Positions 5,320-60,131 are shown, counted from the first letter of the stretch. The stretch is 64,000 bases of DNA from Candidatus Omnitrophota bacterium (GCA_043817155.1 JBDRHE010000008.1:1554-65553); one strand, 5' to 3'. Notes: generated by a model not told the origin, from the sequence alone. Translations and numbers: made by a program.

Positions 5320-5340
5320 ATTTTTCCTGAGTGATGAATA

Positions 5341-6967: not shown

Positions 6968-6998
6968 GGTTCTAACTTCGTCCAGCCAGCGACCCCGG
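6968..6998 (+). repeat. Cassette-junction repeat copy R3
   Basis: GGTTCTAACTTCGTCCAGCCAGCGACCCCGG. Confidence 0.85.
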
Positions 6999-7055
6999 TT
7001 CTTTTGAAAAAAGTAGAAAATATAACGAATAACATATTTAAAGGAGGTTATACAG

Positions 7056-7505
7056 ATGAAATGTCCTAAATGTGATTGCGCTCTCAGCAAAGTGCTTGTG
7101 GAGGTCCGGCCTGAATACGGTGCAGATATACTCCAAGATGCGGAACAAACAAGTGAGATAGAGCTTGACCAGTGCGTGAGCTGTAACGGCGTGTGGTTTG
7201 ATGTAAAAGAATTGGACCAATATTTGGCGGAGAAGTTGTTGATTTTAAATTCTCCTAAGATATCAGATTATAAGAAGCTCGATAAGAAGGTAGGTATGTG
7301 CCCGCGATGTAATCAAAAGATGGTTAAGGAGCCGGCACCTAAAGGAGCTGCTTTTATGGTTGATGTATGCAAAAAGTGCCAGGGTGTTTGGTTAGATAGC
7401 ACCGAACTTGATAAGATTGAAAAGAGGAATTTCTCGTTAGGAGAGAAGCACGCTCTTGTGTTTCGCCATCTGAAAGAGATATTTTTCAAAAGGGAGGGTA
7501 ATTAA
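7056..7505 (+). CDS. Zinc-ribbon protein with two CxxC...CxxC-GVWFD-EL domains (zf-TFIIB-like)
   Basis: CPKCD...CVSCNGVWFDVKELDQY and CPRCN...CKKCQGVWLDSTELDKIE. The GvWfD.gEL hallmark identifies the transcription-factor-type zinc-ribbon domain. Confidence 0.6.
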   Translation: MKCPKCDCALSKVLVEVRPEYGADILQDAEQTSEIELDQCVSCNGVWFDVKELDQYLAEKLLILNSPKISDYKKLDKKVGMCPRCNQKMVKEPAPKGAAFMVDVCKKCQGVWLDSTELDKIEKRNFSLGEKHALVFRHLKEIFFKREGN

Positions 7506-7507
7506 TT

Positions 7508-7951
7508 ATGGACTGCCCCAAATGTCTTGGTAAATTACAGAAGACAAAGATTAATATGTATGAGACTTCGGACATCGAAGAGCTTAAAGGAGCAGTTGCA
7601 GCGAAATCGCTAGAGATTGACCAGTGCTTTGTCTGTGGAGGCGTTTGGTTCGATAAAGGAGAGCTTGGTAAATATACGACCGAAAAGATAACAATAATTG
7701 ATGCCGCTTCAGTAGGCAAAACGCTTGATAAAGAGCTGGATGTGAAAGATGGAAAATGCCCGAAATGTTCAGTTGTGATGAAGAAGACGGCATATGAGAA
7801 AGAGCCGAGCATTACGCTCGATGTATGTGAAAAATGTGGAGGCATCTGGCTTGATTCTACGGAAATTGACCGAGTTGAAAGAGCGAATAAAGGAAAAATA
7901 GGATTTCTCGGACTTTTCTTCAAGGGATTTCAAAGACCAAAGGGAAAATAG
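7508..7951 (+). CDS. Paralogous zinc-ribbon protein (tandem duplicate of 7056-7505)
   Basis: Same two-domain architecture: CPKCLG...CFVCGGVWFDKGELGKY and CPKCS...CEKCGGIWLDSTEIDRVE. The start is 3 nt after the previous stop. Confidence 0.6.
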   Translation: MDCPKCLGKLQKTKINMYETSDIEELKGAVAAKSLEIDQCFVCGGVWFDKGELGKYTTEKITIIDAASVGKTLDKELDVKDGKCPKCSVVMKKTAYEKEPSITLDVCEKCGGIWLDSTEIDRVERANKGKIGFLGLFFKGFQRPKGK

Positions 7952-7998
7952 CAGTTTTATTTAGCATAGAGCTCCGGTTACTCTAATTACATAAAAAA

Positions 7999-8051
7999 GT
8001 TCTAACTTTGTCTAATCACTTACCCCAGCTTTATAATGTTTTACAATGTTT
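7999..8051 (+). repeat. Cassette-junction repeat copy R4 (degenerate core) plus the same 23-bp TATAAT extension
   Basis: GTTCTAACTTTGTCTAATCACTTACCCCAGC followed by TTTATAATGTTTTACAATGTTT. Confidence 0.75.
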
Positions 8052-8071
8052 GTTAATTACAAATCAAAGAA

Positions 8072-9091
8072 ATGAAAAAAATATCAAGCCTAAAAGAATA
8101 TAACGTATTTCTGCAAGAGGTAAAACAAAGAATCCGTTCTGCCCAATATGAGGCCCTTAAGGCGGTTAATAAAGAACTTATACAGCTGTATTGGGATATA
8201 GGAAAGATGATTGTTAATAGGCAAAAACAATACAGATGGGGGAAATCTGTTGTAGAAAATCTCGCTAAAGATATACAGGCAGAATTCCCCGGTGTTCGGG
8301 GATACTCGACTCAGAATTTGTGGTATATGAGGCAATTCTATTCGGAATACGTAAATAATGCAAATCTCCAACCGCTGGTTGGAGAAATCGGCTGGGCGCA
8401 TAATTTAGCTATAATGAGCAAGGTTAAGGATTTGTTAGAACGGGAGTTTTATATCCGCATGACAAGGCGTATGGGGTGGACTAAAAATGTGCTGATTCAT
8501 CAGATTGAAAATAAGACATATGAAAAAACGTTGCTCAATCAGACAAATTTCAAGAAGGCTCTTCCAGAAGAGATACGCAATCAGGCAAAATTGGCGGTGA
8601 AGGACGAGTATACCTTTAATTTCCTGGACCTGGGAGAAGAATATAAGGAAATGGAGCTTGAGAGGGCTTTAGTCGCCAAGATAAATCGTTTTCTTATTGA
8701 AATGGGCGGTTCTTTTGCGTTTATGGGAAATCAATTTCGCCTTGAGATCAATGGTAAGGAATTTTTCATTGATATCTTGCTATATCACCGCAAGCTCAAG
8801 TGTTTAGTGGCAATAGAGCTCAAGATTGGAGAATTCAAACCAGAATATGCCGGGAAGATGCAGTTTTACTTAGCAGCCCTCGATGATATAGTGAAAGCAA
8901 AAGGAGAGAATCCTTCGATTGGCATTATTCTATGTAAGGATAAAGACCGCACCATTGTCGAATACGCGCTCCGTGAAAGCAAGAAACCGATAGCGGTGGC
9001 GAAATATAGGATTACTACAAAACTGCCAAAAGAACTGAAGAAAGAATTACCGGCACCCGAGCAGATACAGAAGCTTTTTAAGGATATGTAG
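8072..9091 (+). CDS. YhcG/DUF1016-family PDDEXK nuclease
   Basis: N-terminal YhcG_N-like region (QLYWDIGKMI, GYSTQNLWYMRQFY, GWAHNLAIMS). C-terminal PD-(D/E)xK core (FIDILLYH ... LVAIELKIGEFKPEYAGKMQFY). Confidence 0.65.
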   Translation: MKKISSLKEYNVFLQEVKQRIRSAQYEALKAVNKELIQLYWDIGKMIVNRQKQYRWGKSVVENLAKDIQAEFPGVRGYSTQNLWYMRQFYSEYVNNANLQPLVGEIGWAHNLAIMSKVKDLLEREFYIRMTRRMGWTKNVLIHQIENKTYEKTLLNQTNFKKALPEEIRNQAKLAVKDEYTFNFLDLGEEYKEMELERALVAKINRFLIEMGGSFAFMGNQFRLEINGKEFFIDILLYHRKLKCLVAIELKIGEFKPEYAGKMQFYLAALDDIVKAKGENPSIGIILCKDKDRTIVEYALRESKKPIAVAKYRITTKLPKELKKELPAPEQIQKLFKDM

Positions 9092-9134
9092 CGAGCGCTG
9101 TTTAACGTAAAGTCGCTGGTCCCTCTATTAGACA

Positions 9135-9166
9135 GGTTCTAACTTTGTCCAGCCAGCGACCCCAGC
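9135..9166 (+). repeat. Cassette-junction repeat copy R5
   Basis: GGTTCTAACTTTGTCCAGCCAGCGACCCCAGC. Upstream, GTCGCTGG (9108-9115) can pair with CCAGCGAC inside the repeat. Confidence 0.85.
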
Positions 9167-9273
9167 ATTTTGACGAAGACAAATGGGTGGCCCCTTTGAT
9201 CCGCCTGATTCTATCGCAGAAGAAGGTTTCCGTAGCTTATCCACGCAAATCTATCAATAAACAATATTAATAC

Positions 9274-9678: not shown

Positions 9679-9819
9679 GATCTCAGATCTTTGGGAAAAG
9701 GGGATGACAGAGAAAGAACTATGAAGACTCACTCACCGGCTACACATCATGTGACTATTTTAGCATAACAAATCAGCATTTATGCTATAATATCATCCGG
9801 AAAACATAGGAGGAAAAAA

Positions 9820-12638: not shown

Positions 12639-13373
12639 ATGTTCAGTGGTATTCTATTAGCGATAATACAGGCTGCCACCGAATTCTTACCCATATCATC
12701 CTCGGGGCACCTGGCTATAGCGACGAATTTGATCTCACAGCCGGATCTCTTCTTTTTTACAGCGCTACATTTAGCCAGCCTCATAGCGGTTCTTATCTTT
12801 ACAAGAAAAGAGCTTGCAAGTCTTGTGAAATTCAAGAAAGAGACAAGGAACTTGTGGCTCTTCTTGATGATCGCGACCATACCCTCCGCATTATTCGGGT
12901 TTTTCTTCAGGAGCCGGATCGAGGGAACTTTTTCGTCATTTCTATTTATAGGAATAGCGCTTTGCTTTACAGGGGTTATCCTATTCTTCACAAGGTTTAC
13001 AAAGGGAGGCTCGGATTTGAGCATTAAAAGCGCCCTCATAATAGGACTGTTCCAGACGCTCGCGCTATTCCCGGGAGTATCGAGGAGCGGGATCACGATC
13101 TCATGCGCTCTCTTCCTGGGTATCGGGAGGGAGAAAGCCGCAAAATTCTCATTTCTCCTCTTTGTTCCCCTGTCGCTTGGAGCGTTTATGCTGGAGGGGT
13201 TAGAAGGATGTTATGTCAATTTAGCTCTCGGGATCTCTTTTTTGACCTGTCTTATCTTGAGCTTGCTTTTTCTAAATCTTCTGATCTTTATACTTAAAAG
13301 AGACAGATTCTGGCTATTTTCAATTTACTGCGTTTTAGCCGGATTGGTGACTCTAGCTATAAATTATTTATAA
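12639..13373 (+). CDS. uppP: Undecaprenyl-diphosphatase
   Basis: The TEFLPISSSGHL signature and roughly 8 TM helices. Confidence 0.8.
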   Translation: MFSGILLAIIQAATEFLPISSSGHLAIATNLISQPDLFFFTALHLASLIAVLIFTRKELASLVKFKKETRNLWLFLMIATIPSALFGFFFRSRIEGTFSSFLFIGIALCFTGVILFFTRFTKGGSDLSIKSALIIGLFQTLALFPGVSRSGITISCALFLGIGREKAAKFSFLLFVPLSLGAFMLEGLEGCYVNLALGISFLTCLILSLLFLNLLIFILKRDRFWLFSIYCVLAGLVTLAINYL

Positions 13374-13446: not shown

Positions 13447-13644
13447 GTTACCTTCGGAATGCTGACCGATAACATTTTTATCCAAATTAGCCCCTTTGTC
13501 ATTCCCGCGCAAGCGGGAATCCAGGCGGAAAGTACAAACATATTAGAAAGATATACTTCTGGATCCCCGCTGGAGTTTAGACCGCAGCAGCGGTCCGGGG
13601 ATGACATGTGGGGAAAAAGCGGAAATGGCAGACACATAAATCTG

Positions 13645-16279: not shown

Positions 16280-16395
16280 CAGCCTTCCTCCATCGGTTGG
16301 GTTTATTTTATGTCAGTATAGCATATTTATTTATTTTGCGAAATAAAAAAATGAAATAGAAATAGAAAAATAATATTCTAAAAAAGATTACACAC

Positions 16396-16760
16396 CTGCC
16401 TGCCGGCCCGCCTGCCAATGTGAAGTCTTGGCAGGCAGGCAGGGATTATTTTTAAATATATAACGTTTTGATTGCACGGGTGAAAAATATTGATATGTCT
16501 TTGCGAGGCACCGGAATATTCGAACGTGCCGAAGCCTGCCTGCCCGAAATATACTGGCAGGCAGGCAATCTCATTCGAGCTAGTTTGAGATTGCTTCGGA
16601 ACACCAAGTATTCATCGGTTCCTCGCAATGACAGAAGAACGGAGATTGCTTCGGTGCGCTAGCTTATTACGGCACCTCGCAAAGACGAGGGGAGAAACAA
16701 TTGCTTCGGTGCGCTTAGCATATTACGGCACCGCGCAATGACAAGCTGACAGTCGAGCGT
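16396..16760. repeat. Composite intergenic repeat cluster (a CCTGCCTGCC palindrome plus at least 4 double-hairpin units)
   Basis: 16396-16443 is a palindromic unit. The double-hairpin units sit at 16498, 16590, 16655 and 16705. Confidence 0.8.
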
Positions 16761-16797
16761 TTCGATGCATTTGCAAGGAGAACAATTTCAGATATAA

Positions 16798-22494: not shown

Positions 22495-22915
22495 AAAGCA
22501 AAACGGTGCTAGCTCGTCTTTGCGAGGTGCCGTAATATGCTAAGCGCACTGAAACAATTGTTTCTCCCCTCGTCTTTGCGAGGTGCCGTAAATAAGTTAG
22601 CGCACCGAAGCAATCTCAAACTAGCTCGAATGAGATTGCCTGCCTGCCCGCCAAAGCTTTTAAATGGCAGGCGGGCCTGCCAGTATATTTCGGGCAGGCA
22701 GGCTTCGGCACGTTCGAATATTCCGGTGCCTCGCAAAGACGAGGTAAGCTTGAGATTGCTTCGGCACGTTCGAATATTCCGGTGCCTCGCAAAGACGAGG
22801 TAAGCAGAGATTGTCCCGCCGTTACTTTCGCATGGCGGGATCCCGCCATGCGAAGCATGCGACGGGGCTTCGGCACGTTCGAATATTCCGGTGCCTCGCA
22901 AAGACGAATAGAAGA
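22495..22915. repeat. Composite cluster of small palindromic repeats (about-50-bp double-hairpin units in both orientations, three direct copies, a CCTGCCTGCC palindrome, and a CCCGCCGTTACTTTCG...GGCGGGATCCCGCC unit)
   Basis: GCTTCGGCACGTTCGAATATTCCGGTGCCTCGCAAAGACGAGGTAAGC occurs at 22700, 22755 and 22865. Inverted copies lie at 22515 and 22560. Confidence 0.8.
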
Positions 22916-24123: not shown

Positions 24124-24642
24124 ATGAAGCCATCAAGACATATAGCCGCTTCAATAGCCCTTGGAACACTGTTCTGGTTTATTACTAGATCCATATCCGC
24201 GGGCGCTATATGCTGTTTATCGGGTATTATGGTTGATACCGATCATATAATAGAGTGGCTAATGCATTACGGTTGGAAGGGTCTTACGTATAGTAACATA
24301 TATAAGGAGAGCGAAGATACCTATACGAACATATGCAAGGAGAGAGAAGATACCTATAAGAACATATGCAAGGAGAGCGAAGATACCTATGGGCCGGGAA
24401 TGGGCGGGTTTAAGAGATTGTACCTGGTATTTCATAGCGCGGAGTTAATAATTCTTTTCTGGATACTAGCCTTTGTTACAGAGAATATTTATGTCTTTGC
24501 CATCGCGCTCGGCCATTCTTCGCATGTGGCGCTTGACTATATTGGGAACGAAGGGCATCTATTCGCCTATTTCTGGATATGGCGATTCGTGCATAAATTC
24601 AATATCGAAAAGATGCAAAGACGAAAGAAAGGGCGTGCTTAA
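24124..24642 (+). CDS. Hypothetical membrane protein with a 3x 11-aa tandem repeat
   Basis: YKESEDTYTNICKEREDTYKNICKESEDTY is encoded by a 33-bp DNA tandem repeat at 24301-24390. Confidence 0.45.
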   Translation: MKPSRHIAASIALGTLFWFITRSISAGAICCLSGIMVDTDHIIEWLMHYGWKGLTYSNIYKESEDTYTNICKEREDTYKNICKESEDTYGPGMGGFKRLYLVFHSAELIILFWILAFVTENIYVFAIALGHSSHVALDYIGNEGHLFAYFWIWRFVHKFNIEKMQRRKKGRA

Positions 24643-26741: not shown

Positions 26742-26758
26742 AGAGCAAAATACGTAAT

Positions 26759-26943
26759 GGGTGAGTAAACAGGGGTAGTTTCCGTTTGTCATTCCCACAT
26801 CTTCCCACATGTCATCCCCGCGGAAGCGGGGATCCAGAGTGTCCTCGTCGAAAGTACATCCATGGATTCCCGCCTGCCTGCTTGCCGCAGGCGGGCAGGC
26901 TTGCGCGGGAATGACAGAGAAAAAACCCATGAAGACTCGCCCA
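26759..26943. repeat. MITE-like palindromic element, copy A
   Basis: GGGTGAGTAAAC ... GTCATCCCCGCGGAAGCGGGGATCC ... GGATTCCCGCCTGCCTGCTTGCCGCAGGCGGGCAGGCTTGCGCGGGAATGACA ... GAAGACTCGCCC. The termini GGGTGAGT and ACTCGCCC are inverted. Confidence 0.7.
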
Positions 26944-27130
26944 ACGCAAAAATATTCCGAAAAATATCCCAAAATAGCTTGACACCCAAGGCCCATTTTT
27001 GATATAATTCTGAAACTGTAAAAAATACAGGACAAAGGCGTCCTCGCGTGGGGACGCCTGTTTTATTCTATATCGTGTTTAGAAATTGAGCATAATATGA
27101 ATAAAGTATAAGCGAAGAAGGAGGGTAACG

Positions 27131-28723
27131 ATGAATCTACAAAGGCCTAACGCAAATGATGCAACGAGGACCACCAACCGCTCGAGGAGCGTTGTGCCGG
27201 GTTCAGGTATCTGTTCGCGCTGTATTGATGGCTGTAAGGGGAATTGCGAAGTTTTTAAAGCCTCTTTTAGGGGACGAGAAGTAATATATCCCGGTCCTTT
27301 CGGGGATGTGACCGCGGGCGGCGACAAGGATTACCCGGTCGATTATTCACACCTTAATATACAGGGCTATGCGCTTGGCGCAAAAGGTTTACCTGATGGT
27401 GTTGAGGCCGGGCCTGACACGACAAAGTTCCCTGATGTAGATACAGAGACCGAATACGGCTGGGACAAAAAAGTAAAGATGAAGGTCCCTATGTTTACCG
27501 GGGCCCTCGGCTCGACCGAGATAGCAAGAAAGAACTGGGAACACTTCGCAATAGGCGCCGCTATTTCAGGCGTTACCCTGGTTTGCGGAGAGAATGTATG
27601 CGGTATCGACCCGGGACTGGAACTGGATTCGAAGAAGAAGATAAAGAGCGCCCCGGACATGGACAGGCGCATTGAGGTGTACAAGAGATTTCACGAAGGT
27701 TACGGCGAGATCCTTGTGCAGATGAACGTTGAGGATACACGCTTGGGCGTAGCCGAGTATGTCATAAAGAAGCACAAGCTTGACACGATCGAACTTAAAT
27801 GGGGACAGGGCGCGAAGTGCATAGGCGGAGAGATCAAGGTAAACAGTCTCGAAAGAGCGCTCGAGCTTCAGAAGAGAGGTTATATTGTTACCCCTGATCC
27901 ATCTGTTAAATCAATCCAGGCAGCATTTAAAGAAGGCGCCATAAAGGAATTTGAGCGCCATTCCCGCCTCGGCTTTGTATCCGAAGAATCTTTCCTTGCG
28001 GAAGTCAAACGCTTAAGGGATCTCGGGTTCAAGCGCGTTACACTTAAGACGGGCGCATATTCGATGAGAGAACTTGCCATGGCCATTAAGTATAGCTCTC
28101 TGGCCAGGATAGATCTTCTCACAATCGACGGCGCACCGGGCGGAACAGGAATGAGCCCGTGGAGAATGATGGAAGAGTGGGGAATACCGACCTTCTATTT
28201 GCAATCTCTCGCCAACGAATTCTGCGATAAGCTAACTGCTAAGGGTATGCGTATACCTGATATTGCAATAGCCGGCGGGTTCTCATCCGAAGACCACATA
28301 TTCAAGGTACTTGCTATGGGCGCGCCTTATACAAAGGCTGTGTGTATGGGCAGGGCCCTTATGATACCGGGAATGGTCGGAAAGAATATGCAAGGATGGA
28401 TAGACTCAAAAGATCTTCCGAAGACCATTTCGGAATTTGGAAAGACCCCGGAAGAGATCTATGTCACATACGCTGAACTTAAAGAGAAATACGGCAAAGA
28501 CATCAAGCACATTCCTCTCGGAGCTATCGGTATATATACCTTCTCGCAGAAGATCAGGGTAGGACTCCAGCAGCTTATGGCAGGAAGCAGAAACTTCAAG
28601 ATCGACGCAATTGCTAGACAGGATGTTATGAGCCTGACTGAAGAGGCTGCCAAGGTCTCAGGGATCCCTTACATCATGGATGCTTACAGGGAAGAAGCTG
28701 AGATGGTCCTGGAAGGGAAATAG
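27131..28723 (+). CDS. FMN-binding glutamate-synthase-family protein (archaeal-type GltB domain-2 homolog) with an N-terminal Cys cluster
   Basis: CSRCIDGCKGNC (C-x2-C-x3-C-x3-C) at the N-terminus. GltS FMN-domain motifs GAPGGTGMSP ... IAIAGGFSSEDHIFKVLAMGAP. Confidence 0.65.
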   Translation: MNLQRPNANDATRTTNRSRSVVPGSGICSRCIDGCKGNCEVFKASFRGREVIYPGPFGDVTAGGDKDYPVDYSHLNIQGYALGAKGLPDGVEAGPDTTKFPDVDTETEYGWDKKVKMKVPMFTGALGSTEIARKNWEHFAIGAAISGVTLVCGENVCGIDPGLELDSKKKIKSAPDMDRRIEVYKRFHEGYGEILVQMNVEDTRLGVAEYVIKKHKLDTIELKWGQGAKCIGGEIKVNSLERALELQKRGYIVTPDPSVKSIQAAFKEGAIKEFERHSRLGFVSEESFLAEVKRLRDLGFKRVTLKTGAYSMRELAMAIKYSSLARIDLLTIDGAPGGTGMSPWRMMEEWGIPTFYLQSLANEFCDKLTAKGMRIPDIAIAGGFSSEDHIFKVLAMGAPYTKAVCMGRALMIPGMVGKNMQGWIDSKDLPKTISEFGKTPEEIYVTYAELKEKYGKDIKHIPLGAIGIYTFSQKIRVGLQQLMAGSRNFKIDAIARQDVMSLTEEAAKVSGIPYIMDAYREEAEMVLEGK

Positions 28724-28807
28724 ACTGTCGCTGTTAATGCCTAAAAATATATTGACTAAATAACACAAATTTGGTAAGCTGATCTCAACAAAGAAGTTTT
28801 AGGCAAT

Positions 28808-28845
28808 GATGCCCGCGTACGATGAATACGCGGGCATCTTATTTT
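28808..28845 (+). terminator. Rho-independent terminator
   Basis: GATGCCCGCGTA-CGATGAA-TACGCGGGCATC followed by TTATTTT. Confidence 0.7.
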
Positions 28846-29032
28846 GACGTTGTTGTCCTGCCGATTAGACAATGTAGTTGTCTCCCCAAAGACGGTTTTA
28901 ATTGTTGCTTTAATCTTATAACTTGCTATAATTGATTACACGGATTTTTTTGCATCCAAAGGGATGCAACTTAGATTACACAGATGGCGTTTCAATCTGT
29001 GTAATCAAAATGTTATAAGCTCCACAGAATCC

Positions 29033-29080
29033 CTGCCTGCCCGCCAAGACTTCACATTGGCAGGCGGGCCGGCAGGCAGG
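29033..29080. repeat. CCTGCCTGCC...GGCAGGCAGG palindromic repeat (an inverse copy of the one at 16396-16443), flanked by GATTACAC motifs
   Basis: Its reverse complement matches 16396-16443 nearly exactly. Confidence 0.8.
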
Positions 29081-29109
29081 TGTGTAATCATATAAAGAAA
29101 GGAAATATC

Positions 29110-30444
29110 ATGGAAAAAAATAAATTGACAAAAAAGGATATCTTAAAGATCGCAAAAGAGAAGGATATTAAATTCATAAGACTCTGGTTTGCCGATATCA
29201 CCGGTCAGATGAAGGGCTTCGCTATAACGCGCGAAGAGCTGGAGAACGCACTGGAAGATGGCATGGGTTTTGACGGCTCATCAATAAAAGGATTTGCGCG
29301 TATCGATGAATCCGATATGGTCGCCATGCCGGATACATCAACATTTATTATACTGCCATACAGGCCCAAAGAGAAGGCCGTTGCAGGGATGCTCTGTAAT
29401 GTGTTGAATCCTGACAGAACCCCGTATCAGGGAGATTCGCGCTATATACTAAAGAAGAACCTGGAGAGCGCAAAGAAGGAAGGATACACATTCAACATAG
29501 GTCCGGAACTGGAATTCTTTATATTTAAAAACGATAAGTCTACTGAGACCCTGGATGAGGGCGGGTACTTCGATATAACTACACTGGATGCTGCCAATGA
29601 AGTTAGACGCGAGATCATCCTGACTCTTGAACAGATGGGTATCCAGGTAGAGTATTCTCATCACGAGGTTGCACCCTCACAACATGAGATAGATCTCAGG
29701 TATAAGGAAGCGATGTCCATGGCCGACACAGTCATGCTCTACAGGATGGTGGTAAAAGAGATAGCTCAAAAGCACGGTTTTTACGCTACGTTTATGCCGA
29801 AGCCGATATTCGGCCAAAATGGAAGCGGCATGCATACGCACCAGTCGCTCTTTAAAGGGAGCAAGAACGTTTTCTTTAATCCTAAGGATAAGTACCACCT
29901 TTCAAAAGAAGGAAAGTCTTATATCGCGGGAATCTTGAAACACTCAAGAGAGATAACCCTGGTCTGCAACCAGTGGGTAAATTCCTACAAGAGACTGGTG
30001 CCGGGTTATGAAGCCCCTGTTTATATTTGCTGGGCAAGACGCAACAGGAGCGCGCTTGTAAGGGTCCCTATGTATCAACCCGGCAAAGAGAAGGCGACGA
30101 GAATAGAGTTTAGATCGCCGGATCCGTCCTGCAACCCGTATCTGGCATTTGCCACCATGCTTGCGGCCGGTCTTAAAGGTATGAAGGAGAATTACACTCT
30201 TGCGGAACCTATGGAGAGGGATGTATATCACTTAAGCCCGGATGATCTTAAGAAGCTAAAGGTCGGCTGCCTGCCCGGAAGCCTTATAGAAGCTATAGAG
30301 ATCGCAGAAGGTAGCTCGCTTCTAAAGGAAGCTCTGGGAGACCACATATTTAACAATCTCATCATGAGCAAGAAGATCGAGTGGGACGAATACAGGAAGA
30401 GAGTTCACGACTACGAGATCAAGACATACTTGCCAATATTATAA
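29110..30444 (+). CDS. glnA: Glutamine synthetase type I
   Basis: GS-I signatures throughout (FDGSSIKGF, the ATP-binding KPIFGQNGSGMHTHQS, NPYLAFA). 444 aa from MEKNKLTKKDI, with an RBS AAAGGAAAT. Confidence 0.85.
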   Translation: MEKNKLTKKDILKIAKEKDIKFIRLWFADITGQMKGFAITREELENALEDGMGFDGSSIKGFARIDESDMVAMPDTSTFIILPYRPKEKAVAGMLCNVLNPDRTPYQGDSRYILKKNLESAKKEGYTFNIGPELEFFIFKNDKSTETLDEGGYFDITTLDAANEVRREIILTLEQMGIQVEYSHHEVAPSQHEIDLRYKEAMSMADTVMLYRMVVKEIAQKHGFYATFMPKPIFGQNGSGMHTHQSLFKGSKNVFFNPKDKYHLSKEGKSYIAGILKHSREITLVCNQWVNSYKRLVPGYEAPVYICWARRNRSALVRVPMYQPGKEKATRIEFRSPDPSCNPYLAFATMLAAGLKGMKENYTLAEPMERDVYHLSPDDLKKLKVGCLPGSLIEAIEIAEGSSLLKEALGDHIFNNLIMSKKIEWDEYRKRVHDYEIKTYLPIL

Positions 30445-30595
30445 CAGCTTCTTAGCTTATTAGCTTTTTAGCTTCTTAGCGTTCTAGGATAACCCACAAG
30501 CCTATCCTAATAAGCTAGAACGTTAGTAAGCGAAAAAAGAATTTCCTAAAAAGGTAGTAAGCTAATTAGCCGGAACGTCAGTTAGCGAGCAATCC

Positions 30596-31300
30596 ATGGC
30601 ACCATCTTCATATAAAGCATATATCAAAACACTGAGCGAGATAAGTAGCGCGATAACGTCCGATCTCTATTTGGGGGATGTTCTCAAACTTATCGTTACA
30701 TTGACTGCAAATGTAATGAAGGCAAAGATATGCGCGCTCTGGCTGCTTGATAAGAAGAAGCGGGAGCTCAAGATACGCGCTACCCAGGCGATGAGCGAAG
30801 AGTATTTAAAGGAGAGAAGTATTAAGGTGGGGGAAGGGATAGTCGGCCTGGTTGCGGAAGAGAAGAAGCCTCTAATGATAAATAATGTACTGGACGATCC
30901 CAGATACAAGGAGAAGAGATTGGCAAGAAAAGAGGGTCTTGTCTCCATGCTCAGCGTTCCCATGATGGTTAAAAAAGAGGTTATAGGTGTAATAAATTGT
31001 TACACGACCACTCCATACAAATTTACGAAGAGCGATATAGATCTTCTGAGCGCGGTAGCAAATCAGGCCGCGGTCGCGATTGAAAATACCGAGCTTATGG
31101 TTAGAACTAAGGTTATCCAGGAAGAGCTGGATGCCAGAAAGAAGGTGGAGAAGGCCAAGGGGATACTAATGAAGGAACAGGGGCTTACCGAGGAAGAGGC
31201 GTATAACCTTATACGAACATCGAGCATGGATAGGCGCGTTCACATGAAGGACATAGCGGAAGCCATCATCCTCTCCCACGACGTGAAAAAAAATATATAA
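30596..31300 (+). CDS. GAF plus ANTAR domain RNA-binding antiterminator-type regulator
   Basis: The N-terminal GAF domain is about 150 aa. The C-terminal ANTAR domain is ELDARKKVEKAKGILMKEQGLTEEEAYNLIRTSSMDRRVHMKDIAEAII. The exact start is uncertain because there is no obvious RBS at 30596. Confidence 0.7.
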   Translation: MAPSSYKAYIKTLSEISSAITSDLYLGDVLKLIVTLTANVMKAKICALWLLDKKKRELKIRATQAMSEEYLKERSIKVGEGIVGLVAEEKKPLMINNVLDDPRYKEKRLARKEGLVSMLSVPMMVKKEVIGVINCYTTTPYKFTKSDIDLLSAVANQAAVAIENTELMVRTKVIQEELDARKKVEKAKGILMKEQGLTEEEAYNLIRTSSMDRRVHMKDIAEAIILSHDVKKNI

Positions 31301-31301
31301 T

Positions 31302-31462
31302 GGGTGAGTGAATAGGGATTCGTCCAAGTTGTCATCCCCGCGGAAGCGGGGATCCAGAGCGGACTCGCCAAGAGTGTATCTATGGATTCCCGCCTGCCTG
31401 CTTGCCGCAGGCGGGCAGGCTTGCGCGGGAATGACAAACAAAAAACCTATAAAGACTCACCT
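31302..31462. repeat. MITE-like palindromic element, copy B
   Basis: GGGTGAGTG at the 5' end and GACTCACCT at the 3' end (terminal inverted repeat). Its internal hairpins are identical to copy A. Confidence 0.7.
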
Positions 31463-31486
31463 AGCATAAGAATTTATAAAAAGATC

Positions 31487-31515
31487 TTGACAAAAACAGA
31501 GTTGCATGTTAAGAT
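31487..31515 (+). promoter_or_regulatory. Sigma70-like promoter for the porin-amt-PII operon
   Basis: TTGACA (31487-31492), a 17-bp spacer and TAAGAT (31510-31515). Downstream is a roughly 240-nt leader with hairpin-plus-U-tract structures. Confidence 0.5.
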
Positions 31516-31754
31516 CGTTGCGTTAGACAAAGAAGTTAATAAGGCATAGAAGCTCGGGTATAGATCCCGGGTTATTTTTTTGGCGAAGACGCCCTTTTTT
31601 AGGCAAAGATAGGCCTGGAAAAGGGCTTTTTTTTCAATGAGCGCATAATTTATGGAATGAAATGAACATAAATTAGAGCGCGAATTGAATCCGCCGAAGC
31701 TAAACACATATGTATTTAGCGAAGGCGGATCTAATTGAATAAGGGAGAATAACA

Positions 31755-32528
31755 ATGAGACTTACAAAGGACATAAATATAATTTTCTTATTAACATTTT
31801 TGGCTTTCACTTGCGTGTTTGCACAATATGGATTTTCAGCTGAGGAGGGGAAACCGGAATGGGCACCCGACATATCGGGCGCCATTACATTTGAGACTAA
31901 GTATGTATGGAGGGGGCAGACTCTGCTTGATGACTACGTTATGCAGCCGGAAGCCTCGATAGGAAAATACGGGTTCACATTCTCAGTGTGGGGAAATTAC
32001 GATACGGGGGTCGCTGATAAGCTTACGGAGTGGGATTATACATTTGACTATACCTTTAATATAGGGGATGCCAGGGAGGCGCTCAATATGGGTGATGATC
32101 TCCTTCATTTCGTGGACCCGTTAAGTGTATCTTCAGGGTATATCCTGTATACGTTCCCCCATCTTAGCGGTGAGGCATTCGAGTCCCATGAATTCTATTG
32201 GGGGCTTGCTTATGATATATTGTTACAGCCCTTCATAACAGTCTATTATGATTTCGATGACGGCAGAGGCGCCTATTTAGAATTCGGAGGAAGTCATACT
32301 TTCGAATTCCAGGATGGCATAACTGCGGATGTCGGAATAACTACGGGGTATAACGCAGGGCAATGGAGATACGACAAGAGCTTCAGCAATCTACTATTTT
32401 CAGGTGAGGTAAGCATTCCGTTCTTGAAGTATTTTAGCGTTTCACCAAATGTAAACTATTCACTTGCGCTTGATGATCAATATCATTCTGAGTTCTATGG
32501 CGGAGTGAAAGTGAGCGTCGAGTATTAA
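31755..32528 (+). CDS. Outer-membrane beta-barrel (porin-like) protein encoded immediately upstream of amt
   Basis: Signal peptide. Alternating amphipathic beta-strand pattern and a C-terminal aromatic-rich strand (GVKVSVEY). Confidence 0.5.
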   Translation: MRLTKDINIIFLLTFLAFTCVFAQYGFSAEEGKPEWAPDISGAITFETKYVWRGQTLLDDYVMQPEASIGKYGFTFSVWGNYDTGVADKLTEWDYTFDYTFNIGDAREALNMGDDLLHFVDPLSVSSGYILYTFPHLSGEAFESHEFYWGLAYDILLQPFITVYYDFDDGRGAYLEFGGSHTFEFQDGITADVGITTGYNAGQWRYDKSFSNLLFSGEVSIPFLKYFSVSPNVNYSLALDDQYHSEFYGGVKVSVEY

Positions 32529-32545
32529 GAAGAAAGGAGCAAATC

Positions 32546-33808
32546 ATGTCAGAGAATACAATTTATGCATCATTAGCCGGAGTCGACACGTTGTGGGTTC
32601 TCATAGCCGCATTCCTTGTCTTCTTTATGCAGGCGGGATTCGGCATGGTTGAAGCCGGTTTCATAAGAGCCAAAAACACGTGCAACATATTAACCAAAAA
32701 CTTCCTGGACTTCTGTATGGCAACACTCGGTTTCTTCATATTTGGCTATGCCATAATGTTTGGATCAGGGAATGGTTTTATGGGATTTAAGGGATGGTTT
32801 CTGACCGGAGCCGAATCCGGGGCGGATATACCCCTCTTTGCTTTCTGGTTATTCCAGGCAGCCTTTTGTGGCGCAGCTGCGACCATTGTAGCCGGGGGTA
32901 TGGCTGAAAGGATGAAGTTCTCAGCTTACCTTATATACTCATTCATAATATCCGCTTTTATCTATCCTATAGTAGGTCACTGGATATGGGGCGGGGGTTG
33001 GCTTGCAAACCTTAATTTTGCGGATTTTGCAGGGTCGACTGTTGTTCATATGGTAGGCGGATTTGCCGCTTTGATAGGAACCATTGTCCTGAAACCGAGG
33101 ATCGGAAAATACAATATAGATGGGTCGGCCAATGCCATAGCCGGGCACTCTATACCGCTTGCGTCCCTAGGCGTATTTATATTATGGTTTGGTTGGTTTG
33201 GGTTCAATCCGGGATCAACGCTCAGTGTCGGGAATGGGAGCTTGATAGCAAGGGTCGCGATCAATACCAATCTGGCTGCAGCAGCCGGAGGAATATTGGC
33301 AATGATCACTGTGTGGCGGATGTTTGGTAAACCTGATCTATCGATGGCAATGAATGGCGCTTTAGCCGGGCTTGTAGCTGTTACTGCACCATGTGCGTAT
33401 ATTGAGCCATGGGCAGCTATAATTATTGGCGCCATTGGTGGCGTAATAGTTGTGCTGGGCGTGGTCTTACTTGATAAGTTGAAGATAGATGATCCTGTTG
33501 GAGCAGTCCCTGTCCATGGATTAAACGGTATATGGGGAACGCTCTCCATTGGACTATTCGGCCAGAAAGCATTAGGAGTAGCGACTGATGGATTATTTTA
33601 TGGAGGGGGTCTAAAACAACTGGGAATTCAGGCATTAGGAGTGAGTGCGGTTGTTGTATTCATTCTACTTGCTATGGGCATTGTCTTTGTTGCGATAGAC
33701 AAGATTATAGGTCTTAGAGTAACAAGGGACGAAGAGCTTAAAGGTCTGGACATAGGCGAGCACGGTATGGAATCTTATTCGGGATTCCAGATTTTTACTA
33801 CGGAATAG
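32546..33808 (+). CDS. amt: Ammonium transporter (Amt family)
   Basis: Amt signature segments (DFAGSTVVHMVGGFAALIGTIVLKPRIG, the twin-His region). 11 TM. Confidence 0.85.
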   Translation: MSENTIYASLAGVDTLWVLIAAFLVFFMQAGFGMVEAGFIRAKNTCNILTKNFLDFCMATLGFFIFGYAIMFGSGNGFMGFKGWFLTGAESGADIPLFAFWLFQAAFCGAAATIVAGGMAERMKFSAYLIYSFIISAFIYPIVGHWIWGGGWLANLNFADFAGSTVVHMVGGFAALIGTIVLKPRIGKYNIDGSANAIAGHSIPLASLGVFILWFGWFGFNPGSTLSVGNGSLIARVAINTNLAAAAGGILAMITVWRMFGKPDLSMAMNGALAGLVAVTAPCAYIEPWAAIIIGAIGGVIVVLGVVLLDKLKIDDPVGAVPVHGLNGIWGTLSIGLFGQKALGVATDGLFYGGGLKQLGIQALGVSAVVVFILLAMGIVFVAIDKIIGLRVTRDEELKGLDIGEHGMESYSGFQIFTTE

Positions 33809-33968
33809 TTCGACAGATGGGAGAACTACTATGGTTAAGCTACGAAGGACGATGGACGAAAGACGAAGGACGATTCGTAAAATAATGCTTGACGGATGAT
33901 AGCAAAAATAAGACAGCTTAGGTTAGTTATCTCTGATTTCTAAACTTTAAAAAGAAAGGAACTATAAA

Positions 33969-34310
33969 ATGAAACTGATAATAGCCATGATACAGCCGCA
34001 TAAGTTACCCGATGTAAAGAAAGCCCTTTATGATGCAGAAGTACACAAGATGACGGTTACCAACGCTCTAGGTTGTGGACAACAGAAAGGCTATACCGAA
34101 ACATATAGAGGCGTAATCCACGATATCAATCTGCTAAAGAAGGTAAAGCTTGAGATCGCGGTAAACGAGGATTATGTCGAACCCACTATCGACGCCATTA
34201 TAAAAGGAGCAAGAACCGGTAAAATCGGGGATGGTAAGATATTTGTGCTGGACTTACCCGAATGCATAAGAATACGAACGGGTGAAAAAGGCAACAAGGC
34301 GATAGGGTAG
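33969..34310 (+). CDS. glnK: Nitrogen regulatory protein P-II
   Basis: 113 aa. The T-loop region TETYRG and the conserved GDGKIFV. It lies 160 bp downstream of amt. Confidence 0.85.
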
Positions 34311-34324
34311 TTTTTAGAAAGATT

Positions 34325-34486
34325 ACGTCTTGTTCTCCCCGCACCTTCCCATATGTCATCTTCGCGAAAGCGGGGATCCAGAGGGGACTCGTAGAGGGTC
34401 CATCCATGGATTCCCGCCTGCCTGCTTGCCGCAGGCGGGCAGGCTTTCGCGGGAATGACAGAGAGAGAACCCATGAAGACTCGATC
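34325..34486. repeat. MITE-like palindromic element, copy C (5' end degenerate)
   Basis: GTCATCTTCGCGAAAGCGGGGATCC ... GGATTCCCGCCTGCCTGCTTGCCGCAGGCGGGCAGGCTTTCGCGGGAATGACA ... GAAGACTCGAT. Confidence 0.7.
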
Positions 34487-34551
34487 ATTACATAAGATTA
34501 GAAAACTTGCTATCAATGCAAAAAGGTTTAAGATATAATTAAGGCATCAAT

Positions 34552-39084: not shown

Positions 39085-39484
39085 CACGTAAATCGAATCC
39101 GGCATATGCCCGTCTTCGTCCGCCGCCTACGGCGGCGCGGCTACGACGCGGCAAACTTCGCCTATAGCGGCCTACCGGGACGTAGCTCTGAAGGATTTAC
39201 TTTTAGTCGGCATTCTTCAGAGCGAAGTCTGGTGTGGGGGAGTATACGGAAGGCTAACTCGAATAGTACGTTACGATGGATGACGGACGAAGGACGACGG
39301 ACGATAGCGATTCCACTCCCGGCCTGGAATAAAGAGGTTTACCTAGACAGGCCGGGAGTGGAATCTGCTCAACTTACGACGGATGACGGATGATGGATGA
39401 TGGACGAAAGACGATTCGCCTTGTCTTTGCGAGGTACCGTAGAGATGAGCTAGCATTGTTTCCCTGGCTGCTTGGAGTTAAGAG

Positions 39485-43126: not shown

Positions 43127-47954
<4,828 letters not shown>

Positions 47955-48200: not shown

Positions 48201-48229
48201 TTGAAAATATAGCCCTGGTATGTTATAAT
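48201..48229 (+). promoter_or_regulatory. Sigma70-like promoter for the second carB
   Basis: TTGAAA, a 17-bp spacer and TATAAT (48224-48229). RBS ACGGAGG before the ATG at 48285. Confidence 0.55.
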
Positions 48230-48284
48230 GTCGAAAATCTCAAGGGTGGGATTTAATCAAGCAGAGAAAAGTTACGGAGGTAGC

Positions 48285-51200
48285 ATGCCAAAGAGGACGG
48301 ATATCCACAAGGTTCTTATCATCGGTTCGGGACCAATCATTATAGGGCAAGCCTGTGAGTTCGATTATTCCGGCACACAAGCATGTAAAGCATTAAAGGA
48401 AGAAGGTTACGAGGTCGTTCTTGTGAACTCAAACCCCGCTACAATAATGACCGATCCGGGTATGGCTCACAAGACTTATATTGAGCCGCTTACATTAGAG
48501 AGCGTTGAGAAGATCATTGAAAAGGAGAGACCGGATGCCCTCCTTCCTAATCTGGGAGGTCAGACAGGCCTTAATCTCTCTTCCGGTCTTCATAAGGCCG
48601 GTATTCTGAAGAAATATAATGTTGAGATCATAGGCGTTAAAGCAGATGCTATTGAGCGCGGTGAAGACAGGACCGCGTTTAAAAATACAATGAAGAAGCT
48701 CGGTATAGAGATGCCGAGATCGAAGGCATGCAATTCTGTCGAAGAGGCCGAAAAGATAATAGAAGAGATCGGCTACCCCGCGGTTCTGAGACCCGCATAT
48801 ACTATGGGAGGAACGGGTGGGGGAATAGCGTACAATATAGACGAGCTAAGAACGATCGTATCGAGAGGTCTCAATTGCAGTATTGCGCACCAGGTTCTTG
48901 TTGAAGAATCCGTAATAGGCTGGGAAGAGCTTGAGCTCGAGGTTGTAAGGGACCAGAAGAATAAGAAGATAACAGTCTGCTTTATAGAGAATATCGATGC
49001 TATGGGTGTTCACACCGGGGACAGCTTCTGTTCAGCGCCCATGCTGACCGTTCCAAAGCCGCTCCAAAAGAAGATGCAGGACCTCTCTTACAAGATCGTT
49101 GACGCGATAGGTGTTGTGGGAGGCACAAATATCCAATTTGCCCACAATCCCAAGGATGGAAGACTCGTTGTGATAGAGATCAATCCTAGAACATCCCGGT
49201 CTTCTGCGCTCGCATCCAAGGCAACGGGCTTTCCGATAGCCCGCATCTCGACTAAGCTTGCCGCAGGCATTAACATGGATGAGATACCTTACTGGCGTAA
49301 GGGGACATTGGATAAGTATGAACCCTGGGGAGAGTATGTAGTAATTAAATTCGCGCGCTGGGCATTTGAGAAATTCCCGCGCGCTACGGATGTGCTGGGA
49401 ACGCAGATGAAGGCCGTGGGTGAAGTAATGAGCATCGCCAAGACATTTAAGGAGGCGTTCCAGAAGTCTATCCGTTCCCTTGAAATCAAGAGATATGGTC
49501 TTGGAGGAGCCAAGAACTTCAAAGAGCTTTCCCTGGGCGGGTTAAAAGAGAAATTGGCAAATCCGTCAAGCGAACGCGTCTTTCTTATGTACGAAGCGCT
49601 GCGTAAGGGCATGGAGATAGAAGAGCTTCATAAGTTAACCCATATCGGACGGTGGTTTATAAATGAGATGAAGGAGCTTGTCTATTTTGAAGAGGAGATC
49701 CTTAAATCTTCATGGAAAGATCTCCCGGATGAAAAACTTGCTAAAGCAAAGGAATGGGGATTCTCCGATAAATATCTGTCCGGTTTATTTGACATAAAAG
49801 AGAAAGAGGTAAGGGAGAGGAGGCTTTCGATAGGAAAGAAGGCAGCCTACGAACCGGTTCCCGTAAGCGGCGTGGAGAACGCGGCTTATTACTATTCCAC
49901 CTACAACAATGCCGAAGATAAGGTTCCGGTTTCACCCAACAAGAAGATACTGATACTTGGGGGCGGGCCAAACAGGATAGGGCAGGGTATCGAATTTGAC
50001 TATACCTGTGTTCACGCCGCGTTTGCCTTGCGTGAAGAAGGGTATGAATCTGTCATGATAAACTGCAATCCCGAGACCGTATCTACTGATTACGATACTT
50101 CAAATAAGCTATACTTTGAGCCTCTTACAGTAGAAGATGTGCTTGCTGTATACGAGAAGGAGAAGCCGGATGGCGCTATTGTCCAGTTCGGAGGGCAGAC
50201 CCCGCTCAATTTAGCGCAGGAACTTAAGGATAATGGAGTTAAGATTATCGGGACAACCCCGGAGAGTATCAGACTAGCCGAAGACAGGGAGCGTTTCAGG
50301 GAGAAGATGATAGCGCTTGGCATACCGCAACCGGAAAGCGGTACAGCCAGGTCGCTTGAAGAGGCGCTCAAGATCGCTGAAAGGATCGGTTATCCTCTTA
50401 TGGTGCGGCCTTCCTTTGTTCTCGGCGGACGCGGAATGCAGGTTGTCTATGATGACCAGATGCTGCGAAAATACACCCAAGAAGCGATCGAGATAACACC
50501 CGAATACCCGATGCTGATCGATAAATTCCTTGAACAGGCGGTCGAGACAGAGGTCGATGCGTTATCAGACGGTAAAGAGACTTTCGTTGCCGCTATAATG
50601 GAACACATTGAACTTGCCGGTGTACATTCAGGGGACAGCGCGTGCGCAATACCTACAAGAACAATTAAGGAAAAGCATCTAAAGACAATAAGGAGATATA
50701 CAGAAGACATTGCAAGAGAATTTAAAGTAGTCGGGCTCATGAACATACAGTTTGCTATATGTGATGACAAAGTATATATCCTGGAGGCCAATCCAAGGGC
50801 GTCGCGTACGGTTCCACTTATCTCGAAGATCGTTTGCATCCCGCTTGCGCGGATAGCGACACAGGTGATAATGGGCAGACCTCTCTCCGATTTCCCGGAA
50901 CTTAAGACGCATAAGTTGCCATATGTGGGCGTTAAAGAGGCGGTCTTTCCGTTCAATATGTTTCCGGAGGTCGATCCGCTTCTGGGTCCTGAAATGAAGG
51001 CAACAGGAGAGGTCATGGGGATCGGGAAGACTTTTGGCATGGCCTTTTACAAGGCGGAAGAGGCAGCAGGTACAAAGCTTCCCCTGGAAGGGAATGTCTT
51101 GCTTACCGTCGCCGACAAGGACAAGAAATTTTTACTTCCGATCGCCAAACGCCTGAAGAAGCTTAACTTCAATATAATTGCAACAGAGGGTACGAACCGT

Positions 51201-51533
51201 TTTTTAAAGGAGAATGGCATAGAGAGCAGAGCGGTAAAGAAACTACACGAGGGAAGGCCGAACATCCACGATGCGATAAGCAACAAAGAGATAAACCTGA
51301 TAATAAACACGCCCTTAGGGCGCAGCTCAAAGTATGATGACAGCCACATCCGCATAAAAGCGATACAGCATAATATTCCTTATATCACTTCGATGACAGC
51401 GGCTGAAGCCAGCGTCGAAGGTATTGAATCTGTGACCAAAGCCAAAGGAGGCCCCAGGTCTTTGCAGGATTATTATAAGGATCTAAAGACCGATAAAGCG
51501 CCTGAAAAGACGCCCGTTGCCAGCAAGGCTTAG
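48285..51533 (+). CDS. carB: Carbamoyl-phosphate synthase large subunit (copy 2, full-length paralog)
   Basis: Starts [30 protein letters not shown], which is about 75% identical to copy 1 over the N-terminus. The ORF track's upstream extension to 48228 lacks an RBS. Confidence 0.85.
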   Translation: MPKRTDIHKVLIIGSGPIIIGQACEFDYSGTQACKALKEEGYEVVLVNSNPATIMTDPGMAHKTYIEPLTLESVEKIIEKERPDALLPNLGGQTGLNLSSGLHKAGILKKYNVEIIGVKADAIERGEDRTAFKNTMKKLGIEMPRSKACNSVEEAEKIIEEIGYPAVLRPAYTMGGTGGGIAYNIDELRTIVSRGLNCSIAHQVLVEESVIGWEELELEVVRDQKNKKITVCFIENIDAMGVHTGDSFCSAPMLTVPKPLQKKMQDLSYKIVDAIGVVGGTNIQFAHNPKDGRLVVIEINPRTSRSSALASKATGFPIARISTKLAAGINMDEIPYWRKGTLDKYEPWGEYVVIKFARWAFEKFPRATDVLGTQMKAVGEVMSIAKTFKEAFQKSIRSLEIKRYGLGGAKNFKELSLGGLKEKLANPSSERVFLMYEALRKGMEIEELHKLTHIGRWFINEMKELVYFEEEILKSSWKDLPDEKLAKAKEWGFSDKYLSGLFDIKEKEVRERRLSIGKKAAYEPVPVSGVENAAYYYSTYNNAEDKVPVSPNKKILILGGGPNRIGQGIEFDYTCVHAAFALREEGYESVMINCNPETVSTDYDTSNKLYFEPLTVEDVLAVYEKEKPDGAIVQFGGQTPLNLAQELKDNGVKIIGTTPESIRLAEDRERFREKMIALGIPQPESGTARSLEEALKIAERIGYPLMVRPSFVLGGRGMQVVYDDQMLRKYTQEAIEITPEYPMLIDKFLEQAVETEVDALSDGKETFVAAIMEHIELAGVHSGDSACAIPTRTIKEKHLKTIRRYTEDIAREFKVVGLMNIQFAICDDKVYILEANPRASRTVPLISKIVCIPLARIATQVIMGRPLSDFPELKTHKLPYVGVKEAVFPFNMFPEVDPLLGPEMKATGEVMGIGKTFGMAFYKAEEAAGTKLPLEGNVLLTVADKDKKFLLPIAKRLKKLNFNIIATEGTNRFLKENGIESRAVKKLHEGRPNIHDAISNKEINLIINTPLGRSSKYDDSHIRIKAIQHNIPYITSMTAAEASVEGIESVTKAKGGPRSLQDYYKDLKTDKAPEKTPVASKA

Positions 51534-59950: not shown

Positions 59951-60131
59951 ATGGGTGTAAGCGGTTTGACCTGACCCCCTTAAACTTTTTTGAGATTCAA
60001 ACTCGTGTCATCCCCGCGGAAGCGGGGATCCATTGTTGACTCTCGCCTGGATTCCCGCTTGCGCGGGAATGACAAACAGTCTAATTTGGACAGTTATGAT
60101 ATAGTGTGTATACTAAATGCGGAGGTGAGAG

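Follow-up and report, generated by a model that had tools for sequence, protein, structure and literature searches.

Palindromic elements beside nitrogen-assimilation genes in a Candidatus Omnitrophota genome: probable non-autonomous repeats built around an inverted NTS/SRM hairpin pair

The elements analyzed here are short palindromic repeats that occupy six sites in a 64,000-nt stretch of DNA from Candidatus Omnitrophota (hereafter the window; all positions are counted from its first letter). All six sites are intergenic and comprise three long copies, two shorter pairs and one right-end fragment (Table 1). By its sequence, the core matches the known hairpin pair of the Neisseria Transformation Sequence (NTS) and its generalized form, the Ssn-related motif (SRM), which is a dRS3/REPIN-like structure; the elements are an Omnitrophota instance of these already known hairpin-pair repeats. 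They are probably non-autonomous units, formed around the inverted hairpin pair, that are maintained and dispersed via Ssn, a protein encoded elsewhere in the genome. An earlier reading of the same DNA (the original prediction) described a dispersed, non-coding, palindromic and non-autonomous family, and this part of it stands.

The NTS, CGTCATTCCCGCGMAVGCGGGAATCYRG, includes the classical dRS3 repeat (Chenal et al., Nat Commun 2025, PMC11893778), and the SRM pattern derived from the same work is HGTCWYN(0-2)YYVSBRHN(0-5)WNVSBRGN(0-2)RNCYNB. A scan of the window with this pattern identifies 6 matches compared to 0.34 expected in shuffled sequences, two of which fit the NTS consensus with at most one mismatch. 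Two window copies differ from CGTCATTCCCGCGMAVGCGGGAATCYRG only at the first base, which is T in the window copies but C in the NTS. All intact hairpins in the window fit the SRM pattern, and the GTC 5' and the C 3' of the palindrome are read as present in all copies, split hairpins included. The 25-nt hairpin GTCATCCCCGCGGAAGCGGGGATCC is matched 6 times in the window at three or fewer mismatches, against 0.00 expected, in agreement with the earlier claim of shared internal hairpins. Similarly to the NTS/SRM repeats, the window elements are intergenic, multicopy, oriented by GTC upstream and C downstream, and clustered around gene groups, and the nested insert described below fits the loop tolerance reported for that system. 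The differences are that the host is an Omnitrophota metagenome-assembled genome (MAG) rather than Neisseria, Wolbachia or Sphingomonas, that the window pairs are all heterodimers of two stem variants, that the copied unit takes in arms and a second palindrome nested in a loop, and that there is no cognate ssn gene in the 64-kb window. With the Neisseria dRS3 and NIMEs, the elements share ATTCCC-N8-GGGAAT cores that flank short repeat units in intergenic mosaics and, with NIMEs, the presence of mosaic clusters of several palindrome families. However, the spacer and arm sequences are unrelated to the Neisseria RS units and, whereas dRS3 is an attachment site for a phage recombinase (PMC11893778), no phage or IS110-type recombinase context is found in the window.

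The original prediction of three full-length copies holds: copies 1-3 align without gaps over 154 nt (26786-26939, 31306-31459 and 34330-34483), with 82% and 88% identity to the reference copy, and with their arms span 160-185 bp each. Each core consists of two inverted hairpins of ~28 nt, TGTCAT(C/T)CCCGCG-GNAA-CGGG(G/A)ATCCAG. The order in the long copies is a forward hairpin, TGTCATCCCCGCGGAAGCGGGGATCCAG, a 25-nt spacer, and the reverse complement of the sister hairpin, GGATTCCCGC..GCGGGAATGACA. All five pairs in the window combine one C..G-type stem with a GGAA loop, ATCCCCGC-GGAA-GCGGGGAT, and one T..A-type stem with a GCAA loop, ATTCCCGC-GCAA-GCGGGAAT, with the TGTCAT ends pointing outward and a spacer of 13-34 nt. 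Folded as single-stranded DNA, the units reach -26.6 to -38.6 kcal/mol (z-scores -5.4 to -6.6); in this form, each hairpin is predicted to fold alone or the two to pair with one another. The window pairs have the structure typical of the family because outward-facing pairs with a spacer of about 26 nt dominate the fetched loci (53 outward compared to 4 inward, median spacer 26 nt). Among the same loci, the Y/R position of the stem covaries (T..A 135, C..G 14, T..G 2, C..A 0). The GNRA-like appearance of the loops was set aside as a sign of RNA function: NAAG had been imposed by the search pattern itself and, according to the published work, SsnA does not bind RNA (PMC11893778).

The shorter occurrences required some redrawing. 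The region 59952-60083, previously described as a shorter copy, does contain a pair without the inner insert, but the core is confined to 60006-60074 and the portion 59952-60005 is not demonstrably part of copy 4; the outer flank of this copy (~60075-60089) is common to copy 5. What had been taken for a partial unit at 13487-13513 is actually a complete fifth hairpin pair (13497-13607) with a different loop insert, whereas the partial unit near 9715-9742 is a true right-end fragment located at 9700-9737. When translated in a reading frame, the repeats yield spurious peptides of the form VIPAKAGIQ and SFPRKRES. Orphan left hairpin halves (GTCATTCCCRC) are arrayed in tandem immediately 5' of an intact hairpin in the window (26788-26809) and in loci L099, L108, L030, L016 and L020 from many phyla; 49 such halves were counted, compared to 203 intact hairpins. 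Recurrent rounds of cleavage and repair, or slippage at the cut site, may have left these halves behind.

The hairpin is not confined to this genome. An exact 25-mer, GTCATYCCCGCGNAAGCGGGRATCC, scanned against one genome per species, identifies at least 120 genome loci across many bacterial phyla, 3 of them from Omnitrophota. Among the matches listed are Proteobacteria, Chloroflexota, Planctomycetota, Acidobacteriota, Nitrospirota, Gemmatimonadota, Elusimicrobiota and Omnitrophota, as well as Paceibacteria, Parcubacteria and Saccharibacteria of the candidate phyla radiation. The same 25-mer is present in at least 120 viral contigs (IMG/VR, L128-L247). Given the viral contigs, 3 of which contain Ssn-like open reading frames (ORFs), phages or prophages may aid the spread across phyla. 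Searches of the window against Rfam at gathering thresholds and for tRNAs yield no matches.

The right hairpin of copies 1-3 contains in its loop a nested palindrome, CCTGCCTGCTTGCCGCAGGCGGGCAGG, which is identical in the three copies (0.00 expected) and represents a second hairpin family that is free-standing at ~16395, 16535, 22639 and 29032. The proposal that one palindrome is inserted into the loop of another is thus borne out, and nesting at this position has recurred independently in other genomes: the loop is interrupted at the same point (GCGNAAG^CGGG), by unrelated inserts, in a Paceibacteria MAG and in a Gemmatimonadetes MAG, and similar loop inserts can be seen by eye in L019 and L057. 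Overall, 5 loop-interrupted hairpins compare to 203 intact ones among the fetched loci. The presence of the insert in all of copies 1-3 means that the split hairpin has been duplicated at least twice since the nesting, consistent with the report that Ssn does not depend on the loop. Between copies 1-3, 78 of the 83 hairpin positions (the whole nested palindrome included) are invariant, compared to 38 of the 75 positions of the spacer and arms (Fisher p = 4e-10). Therefore, the hairpins are constrained or homogenized while the remainder drifts. Mosaic clusters of at least three other palindromic families (CCTGCCTGCC..GGCAGGCAGG; GCTTCGGCACG..CCTCGCAAAGACGAGG; CGCATGGCGGGATCCCGCCATGCG) occupy intergenic positions 16395-16770, 22500-22915 and 29026-29080, in the manner of BIMEs and NIMEs.

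Comparison with related genomes demonstrates that the long copies are insertions. The GlnA protein encoded in the window is 100% identical to MFH1593220.1, from a Candidatus Omnitrophota MAG. Five relatives (L121, L122, L123, L125 and L127), with GlnA proteins 84-86% identical, share the gene cluster that consists of the GltS-like gene, glnA, the GAF-ANTAR regulator gene, a porin-like gene, amt, the PII gene and gltB, and none of the five has an SRM at the three composite sites. Thus, the elements are insertions rather than orthologous fixtures, as originally proposed. The alignment of the ANTAR-to-porin spacer with those of L121, L125 and L126 reveals copy 2 as a clean insertion of ~161 bp right after the stop codon. 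The TTGACA-17-TAAGAT promoter and the leader with terminator hairpins located 3' of copy 2 are common to the relatives, as is the leader downstream of copy 1. In addition, L121 (GCA_024542975.1) carries a simple NTS pair at 13027-13090, between the porin-like gene and amt, whereas only 17 bp occupy the corresponding site in the window, which points to an independent gain or loss inside the same cluster.

Each of the long copies occupies the gap that separates the stop codon of a gene from the start of the following one. The end of copy 1 is separated by 36 bp, and that of copy 2 by 25 bp, from the -35 box of a strong sigma-70-like promoter, so that both copies lie upstream of the promoter and not in the leader where they had been placed. 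For copy 3, the placement in a leader is unsupported: no convincing promoter is found downstream, the best candidate being TATAAT at ~34534-34539, with no good -35 box. In L122, a TTGACA-17-TATAAT promoter also reads upstream of the conserved leader hairpin. The promoters at 26979-27059 and 31487-31626, each followed by leader hairpins with T-runs, are conserved in relatives (L121, L122 and L125), and these regions are probably antitermination targets of the GAF-ANTAR regulator encoded at 30596-31300; the conserved promoters and the ANTAR-type leaders nearby are probably the parts that serve nitrogen control.

The most plausible partner of the hairpins is the nuclease Ssn. SsnA is a 94-aa single-domain GIY-YIG protein (cd10448) that binds the folded motif on single-stranded DNA only and cuts a few nucleotides upstream of it, with a requirement for three bases 5' of the palindrome and a C 3' of it; the identity of the loop is dispensable, a split NTS still being cut, and flanking SRMs are found at 71% of the Ssn homologs (PMC11893778). 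Such tolerance would account for a hairpin staying functional with 27 nt inserted into its loop. A search for Ssn homologs identifies 7,980 proteins at E <= 1e-10. Among the fetched loci, single-domain GIY-YIG ORFs of ~92-109 aa adjoin hairpins in L057, an Omnitrophota MAG, and in L100 and L101, where they are flanked by hairpins on both sides; Ssn-like ORFs are present also in 3 viral loci. Two of the 13 listed ORFs that are tightly bracketed by two SRMs are Ssn-like (L101 and L162); a third bracket, in L100, also contains an Ssn-like ORF, with a different ORF listed there, and none of the remaining bracketed ORFs has the look of a Y1 transposase by eye. The fetched loci and the published genome-scale association suggest that Ssn is more likely than a RAYT to be the partner of these repeats.

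Several observations weigh against this explanation. We infer the partnership, rather than observe it, because Ssn has been shown to cleave only, transposition being a hypothesis of the authors (PMC11893778), because the arms, although external to the predicted cut sites of Ssn, are duplicated together with the core in copies 1-3, and because the composite was not found elsewhere, its copying being documented inside this window only. Because the arms are co-duplicated, cleavage beside the hairpins is not sufficient to account for the unit that was copied. Scans of JGI metagenome contigs yield 0 matches to the 37-mer spanning the nested junction and 0 matches to a degenerate pattern for the right arm. 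The 64-kb window contains no gene for a GIY-YIG protein (Ssn), RAYT/Y1 or any other transposase, and a literature search for Ssn-mediated transposition found no paper. Finally, Bertels and Rainey regard the Neisseria repeat as a REPIN that is mobilized by a Group 2 RAYT (bioRxiv 10.1101/2021.07.10.451892).

If Ssn is the partner, the following mechanism can be proposed. An ssn gene elsewhere in the genome would encode a small single-domain GIY-YIG nuclease, which would most likely recognize the stem together with the 5' GTC and the 3' C and would nick a few nucleotides 5' of GTCAT; the units would be maintained and dispersed by this interaction or by an as-yet-unshown transposition built on it. 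In the Omnitrophota lineage, one pair gained a second palindrome in the loop of the right hairpin, along with the flanking arms, and the resulting composite of 160-185 bp was then copied, reaching no fewer than three sites in 8 kb, each between a stop codon and the next start and, for copies 1 and 2, also upstream of the promoter of the next operon. Effects on recombination or on the 3' ends of upstream mRNAs may follow from the presence of such units. It seems rather unlikely that the composite is a true transposable unit moved by Ssn via single-stranded DNA, with the folded NTS loop perhaps serving as a preferred landing site for other hairpin elements; if so, it would represent a transposition chemistry not yet shown for bacteria.

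An unlikely alternative is that the pairs are doublets of repetitive extragenic palindromic (REP) sequences copied by a RAYT, a domesticated IS200-like Y1 (HUH) transposase encoded once elsewhere in the genome, with Ssn irrelevant to their spread. The geometry is exactly that of REPINs, i.e., two inverted REPs with a short spacer that form a long hairpin, and the two hairpins of each of the 5 pairs are within ~130 bp of each other. The elements also resemble REPINs in being non-autonomous and in combining conserved hairpins with a drifting spacer, and the master sequence of the Neisseria REPIN population, for which a Group 2 RAYT is considered, is the same repeat (bioRxiv 10.1101/2021.07.10.451892). 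A possible insertion 3' of RTAA with no clean duplication would suit single-strand Y1 transposition as well. However, a phmmer search with a validated IS200 TnpA query, which has limited reach to divergent RAYTs, detects no Y1-type ORF in either the window or the 240 loci searched (120 genome, 120 viral), and no RAYT was detected in the fetched sequences. Moreover, the ORFs bracketed by hairpins are of the GIY-YIG type, not Y1, and the published large-scale association is with ssnA (PMC11893778).

A primary role at the 3' ends of RNAs, i.e., terminating or stabilizing the upstream transcript, appears quite unlikely as the origin of the repeats. In all five pairs, the C..G-type hairpin is the proximal one and is located 30-69 nt 3' of the stop codon of the upstream gene, and copy 5 is flipped together with its upstream gene on the minus strand. 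A 3'-end role would explain this position and the single orientation; the predicted hairpins are also very stable, and copies 1-3 have no other terminator separating them from the preceding stop codon. The elements are comparable in this respect to the E. coli REP/BIME elements, which are extragenic palindromes after stop codons, in mosaics with other motifs, and which may also affect mRNA 3' ends, as some REPs do; they differ in sequence and, possibly, in the class of the associated enzyme. Nevertheless, no T-run follows the element hairpins in the window, and elements are absent from terminator-like sites, which indicates that they are not intrinsic terminators. The position is explained equally well by tolerance, given that only the 17-30 nt after the stop codon are dispensable between co-directional operons; the agreement in orientation over 5 copies is weak (~1 in 16), with insertion preference and selection not separable at this number of pairs; and the relatives do without the elements. 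Such a role is compatible with dispersal via Ssn as a side effect and is not a rival origin.

The view of the elements as classical miniature inverted-repeat transposable elements (MITEs) derived from a DDE insertion sequence, with 8-9-bp termini, TGGGTGAGT/ACTCRCCCA, moved in trans with a short target duplication and carrying the NTS hairpins as passengers, is very unlikely. Terminal inverted repeats were originally thought to be shared by the copies, and indeed GGGTGAGT/ACTCRCC, 9 bp with one mismatch, delimits copies 1 and 2, and the right terminus is kept in the fragment at 9700. Copy 3, however, lacks the GGGTGAGT left terminus (the PII gene itself ends natively there in a look-alike string), and copies 4 and 5, which clearly have the same core, lack both termini, their flanks being different and common to each other; hence only 2 of the 5 pairs have terminal inverted repeats at both ends. 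A check for target-site duplications yields a candidate RTAA, with 4 of 4 positions in copy 2 (ATAA/ATAA) and 3 of 4 in copy 1 (GTAA/GCAA), and with no empty site from a close relative. Deletion of copy 2 with one ATAA restores a distance of 17 nt from the stop codon to the -35 box, as in L125. A 4-bp duplication at copies 1 and 2 is thus suggestive only, and doubtful. Co-duplication of the arms with the core would suit a MITE, but conservation is lowest in the arms and highest in the hairpins, the arm sequences have no match in the metagenome scan, and no transposase with matching terminal inverted repeats is found within the window. In contrast to Correia elements, a type of bacterial MITE that is likewise short, non-coding, dispersed and found near promoters but has terminal inverted repeats that are long and defined, together with a TA duplication, the terminal repeats in the window are weak and not consistently present, and it is the internal part that is conserved. 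A junction of the form TAA|TGG, considered as the insertion point of all copies, was rejected because in copy 5 this string is coding sequence.

The least tenable possibility, a cis-element of a nitrogen regulon (leader hairpin, ANTAR target or protein-binding site) that acts on the GltS-like gene and glnA, on porin-amt-PII and on gltBD, was suggested by 3 of the 6 copies lying within 8 kb beside nitrogen-assimilation genes and is already largely refuted: the five relatives keep the cluster with its promoters and terminator-type leaders in the absence of the elements, and hence the cluster has its regulatory parts whether or not the elements are there; both copy 1 and copy 2 are upstream of promoters; the remaining copies adjoin unrelated genes, for an ornithine/diaminopimelate decarboxylase, an OmpA-LysM protein and a response regulator; there is no Rfam match; and this hairpin recurs across phyla in unrelated contexts. 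Since copies 1-3 form one subfamily, local spread suffices to account for their apparent enrichment in the nitrogen cluster. The elements are selfish or structural DNA, not a nitrogen-regulatory leader.

Several other features of the window are unrelated to the hairpin pairs. A 31-nt direct repeat, GGTTCTAACTTYGTCCAGCCAGCGACCCCAGC, which is not palindromic, is present in 5 copies within 5289-9191. Four of the five are directly 3' of a small gene, encoding a putative carbonic anhydrase, a MORN/pseudopilin-like protein, a zinc-ribbon protein and a YhcG PDDEXK nuclease, and the first repeat is just upstream of the putative carbonic anhydrase gene, an arrangement resembling a cassette array. Purine-rich (GGACGAW)n runs that repeat every 7 nt are located at 33840-33875, 39272-39310 and 39375-39415, in the amt-PII and gltB-gltD spacers. 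Two paralogous genes for the carbamoyl-phosphate synthase large subunit (43127-46363 and 48228-51533) lie 5 kb apart and are 71-73% identical at the DNA level in stretches of ~300 nt. Three tandem 33-bp repeats (24285-24390) are inside an ORF (24124-24642) that has no Pfam match.

Table 1. Coordinates of the repeat copies, their parts and the adjacent promoter-leader regions. The outer limits of the long copies are approximate (~26757-26943, ~31301-31462 and ~34325-34486).
Feature	Position	Strand	Details
Composite copy 1	26757..26943	+	left arm 26757-26809; right arm 26918-26943
Copy 1, orphan half-NTS	26788-26798		within left arm
Copy 1, forward NTS	26810-26837		
Copy 1, spacer	26838-26862		
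Copy 1, reverse NTS	26863-26917		interrupted by nested palindrome 26873-26899
Composite copy 2	31301..31462	+	begins immediately 3' of the GAF-ANTAR stop codon
Copy 2, forward NTS	31330-31357		
Copy 2, reverse NTS (split)	31383-31437		nested palindrome 31393-31419
Composite copy 3	34325..34486	+	left boundary uncertain, 34311-34330
Copy 3, forward NTS	34354-34381		CC>TT changes; G-T pairing kept
Copy 3, reverse NTS (split)	34407-34461		nested palindrome 34417-34443
Copy 4	60006..60074	+	plain NTS pair, no loop insert; 13-nt spacer
Copy 4, forward NTS	60006-60033		
Copy 4, reverse NTS	60047-60074		
Copy 5	13497..13607	-	NTS pair, inverted relative to copies 1-4
Copy 5, T..A-type NTS	13497-13524	+	
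Copy 5, C..G-type NTS	13559-13607	-	loop swapped for unrelated hairpin GGAGTTTAGACCGCAGCAGCGGT
Truncated copy	9700..9737	+	retains just the final 9 nt of the reverse NTS (GGGGATGAC) plus the right arm AGAGAAAGAACTATGAAGACTCACTCACC
Promoter and leader hairpin, outside element	26979..27059	+	sigma-70-like TTGACA-18-TATAAT at 26979-27008, 12/12 matches
GltS-like/glnA leader terminator hairpin	27036-27059	+	conserved in L122
Promoter and leader, outside element	31487..31626	+	TTGACA-17-TAAGAT at 31487-31515; conserved in L121, L125 and L126
Porin-amt-PII leader terminator hairpins	31551-31573 and 31591-31626	+	

The identification of these elements extends the recently described NTS/Ssn class of repeats to Omnitrophota and removes a false lead, in that the hairpins beside glnA, amt and gltB are not a device of nitrogen control; it also calls for caution in annotation, where such repeats are read as spurious peptides. 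The hairpin with the 27-nt insert, copied at least twice, is a natural experiment that fits the reported requirement of Ssn for the stem and flanks only and bears on the question of which enzyme, Ssn or RAYT, spreads these repeats. If, as seems rather unlikely, the loop of a folded NTS hairpin is a preferred landing site for other hairpin elements, such repeats would evolve by the nesting of one hairpin in the loop of another and would still be recognizable, since the enzyme would read only the stem and the flanks.

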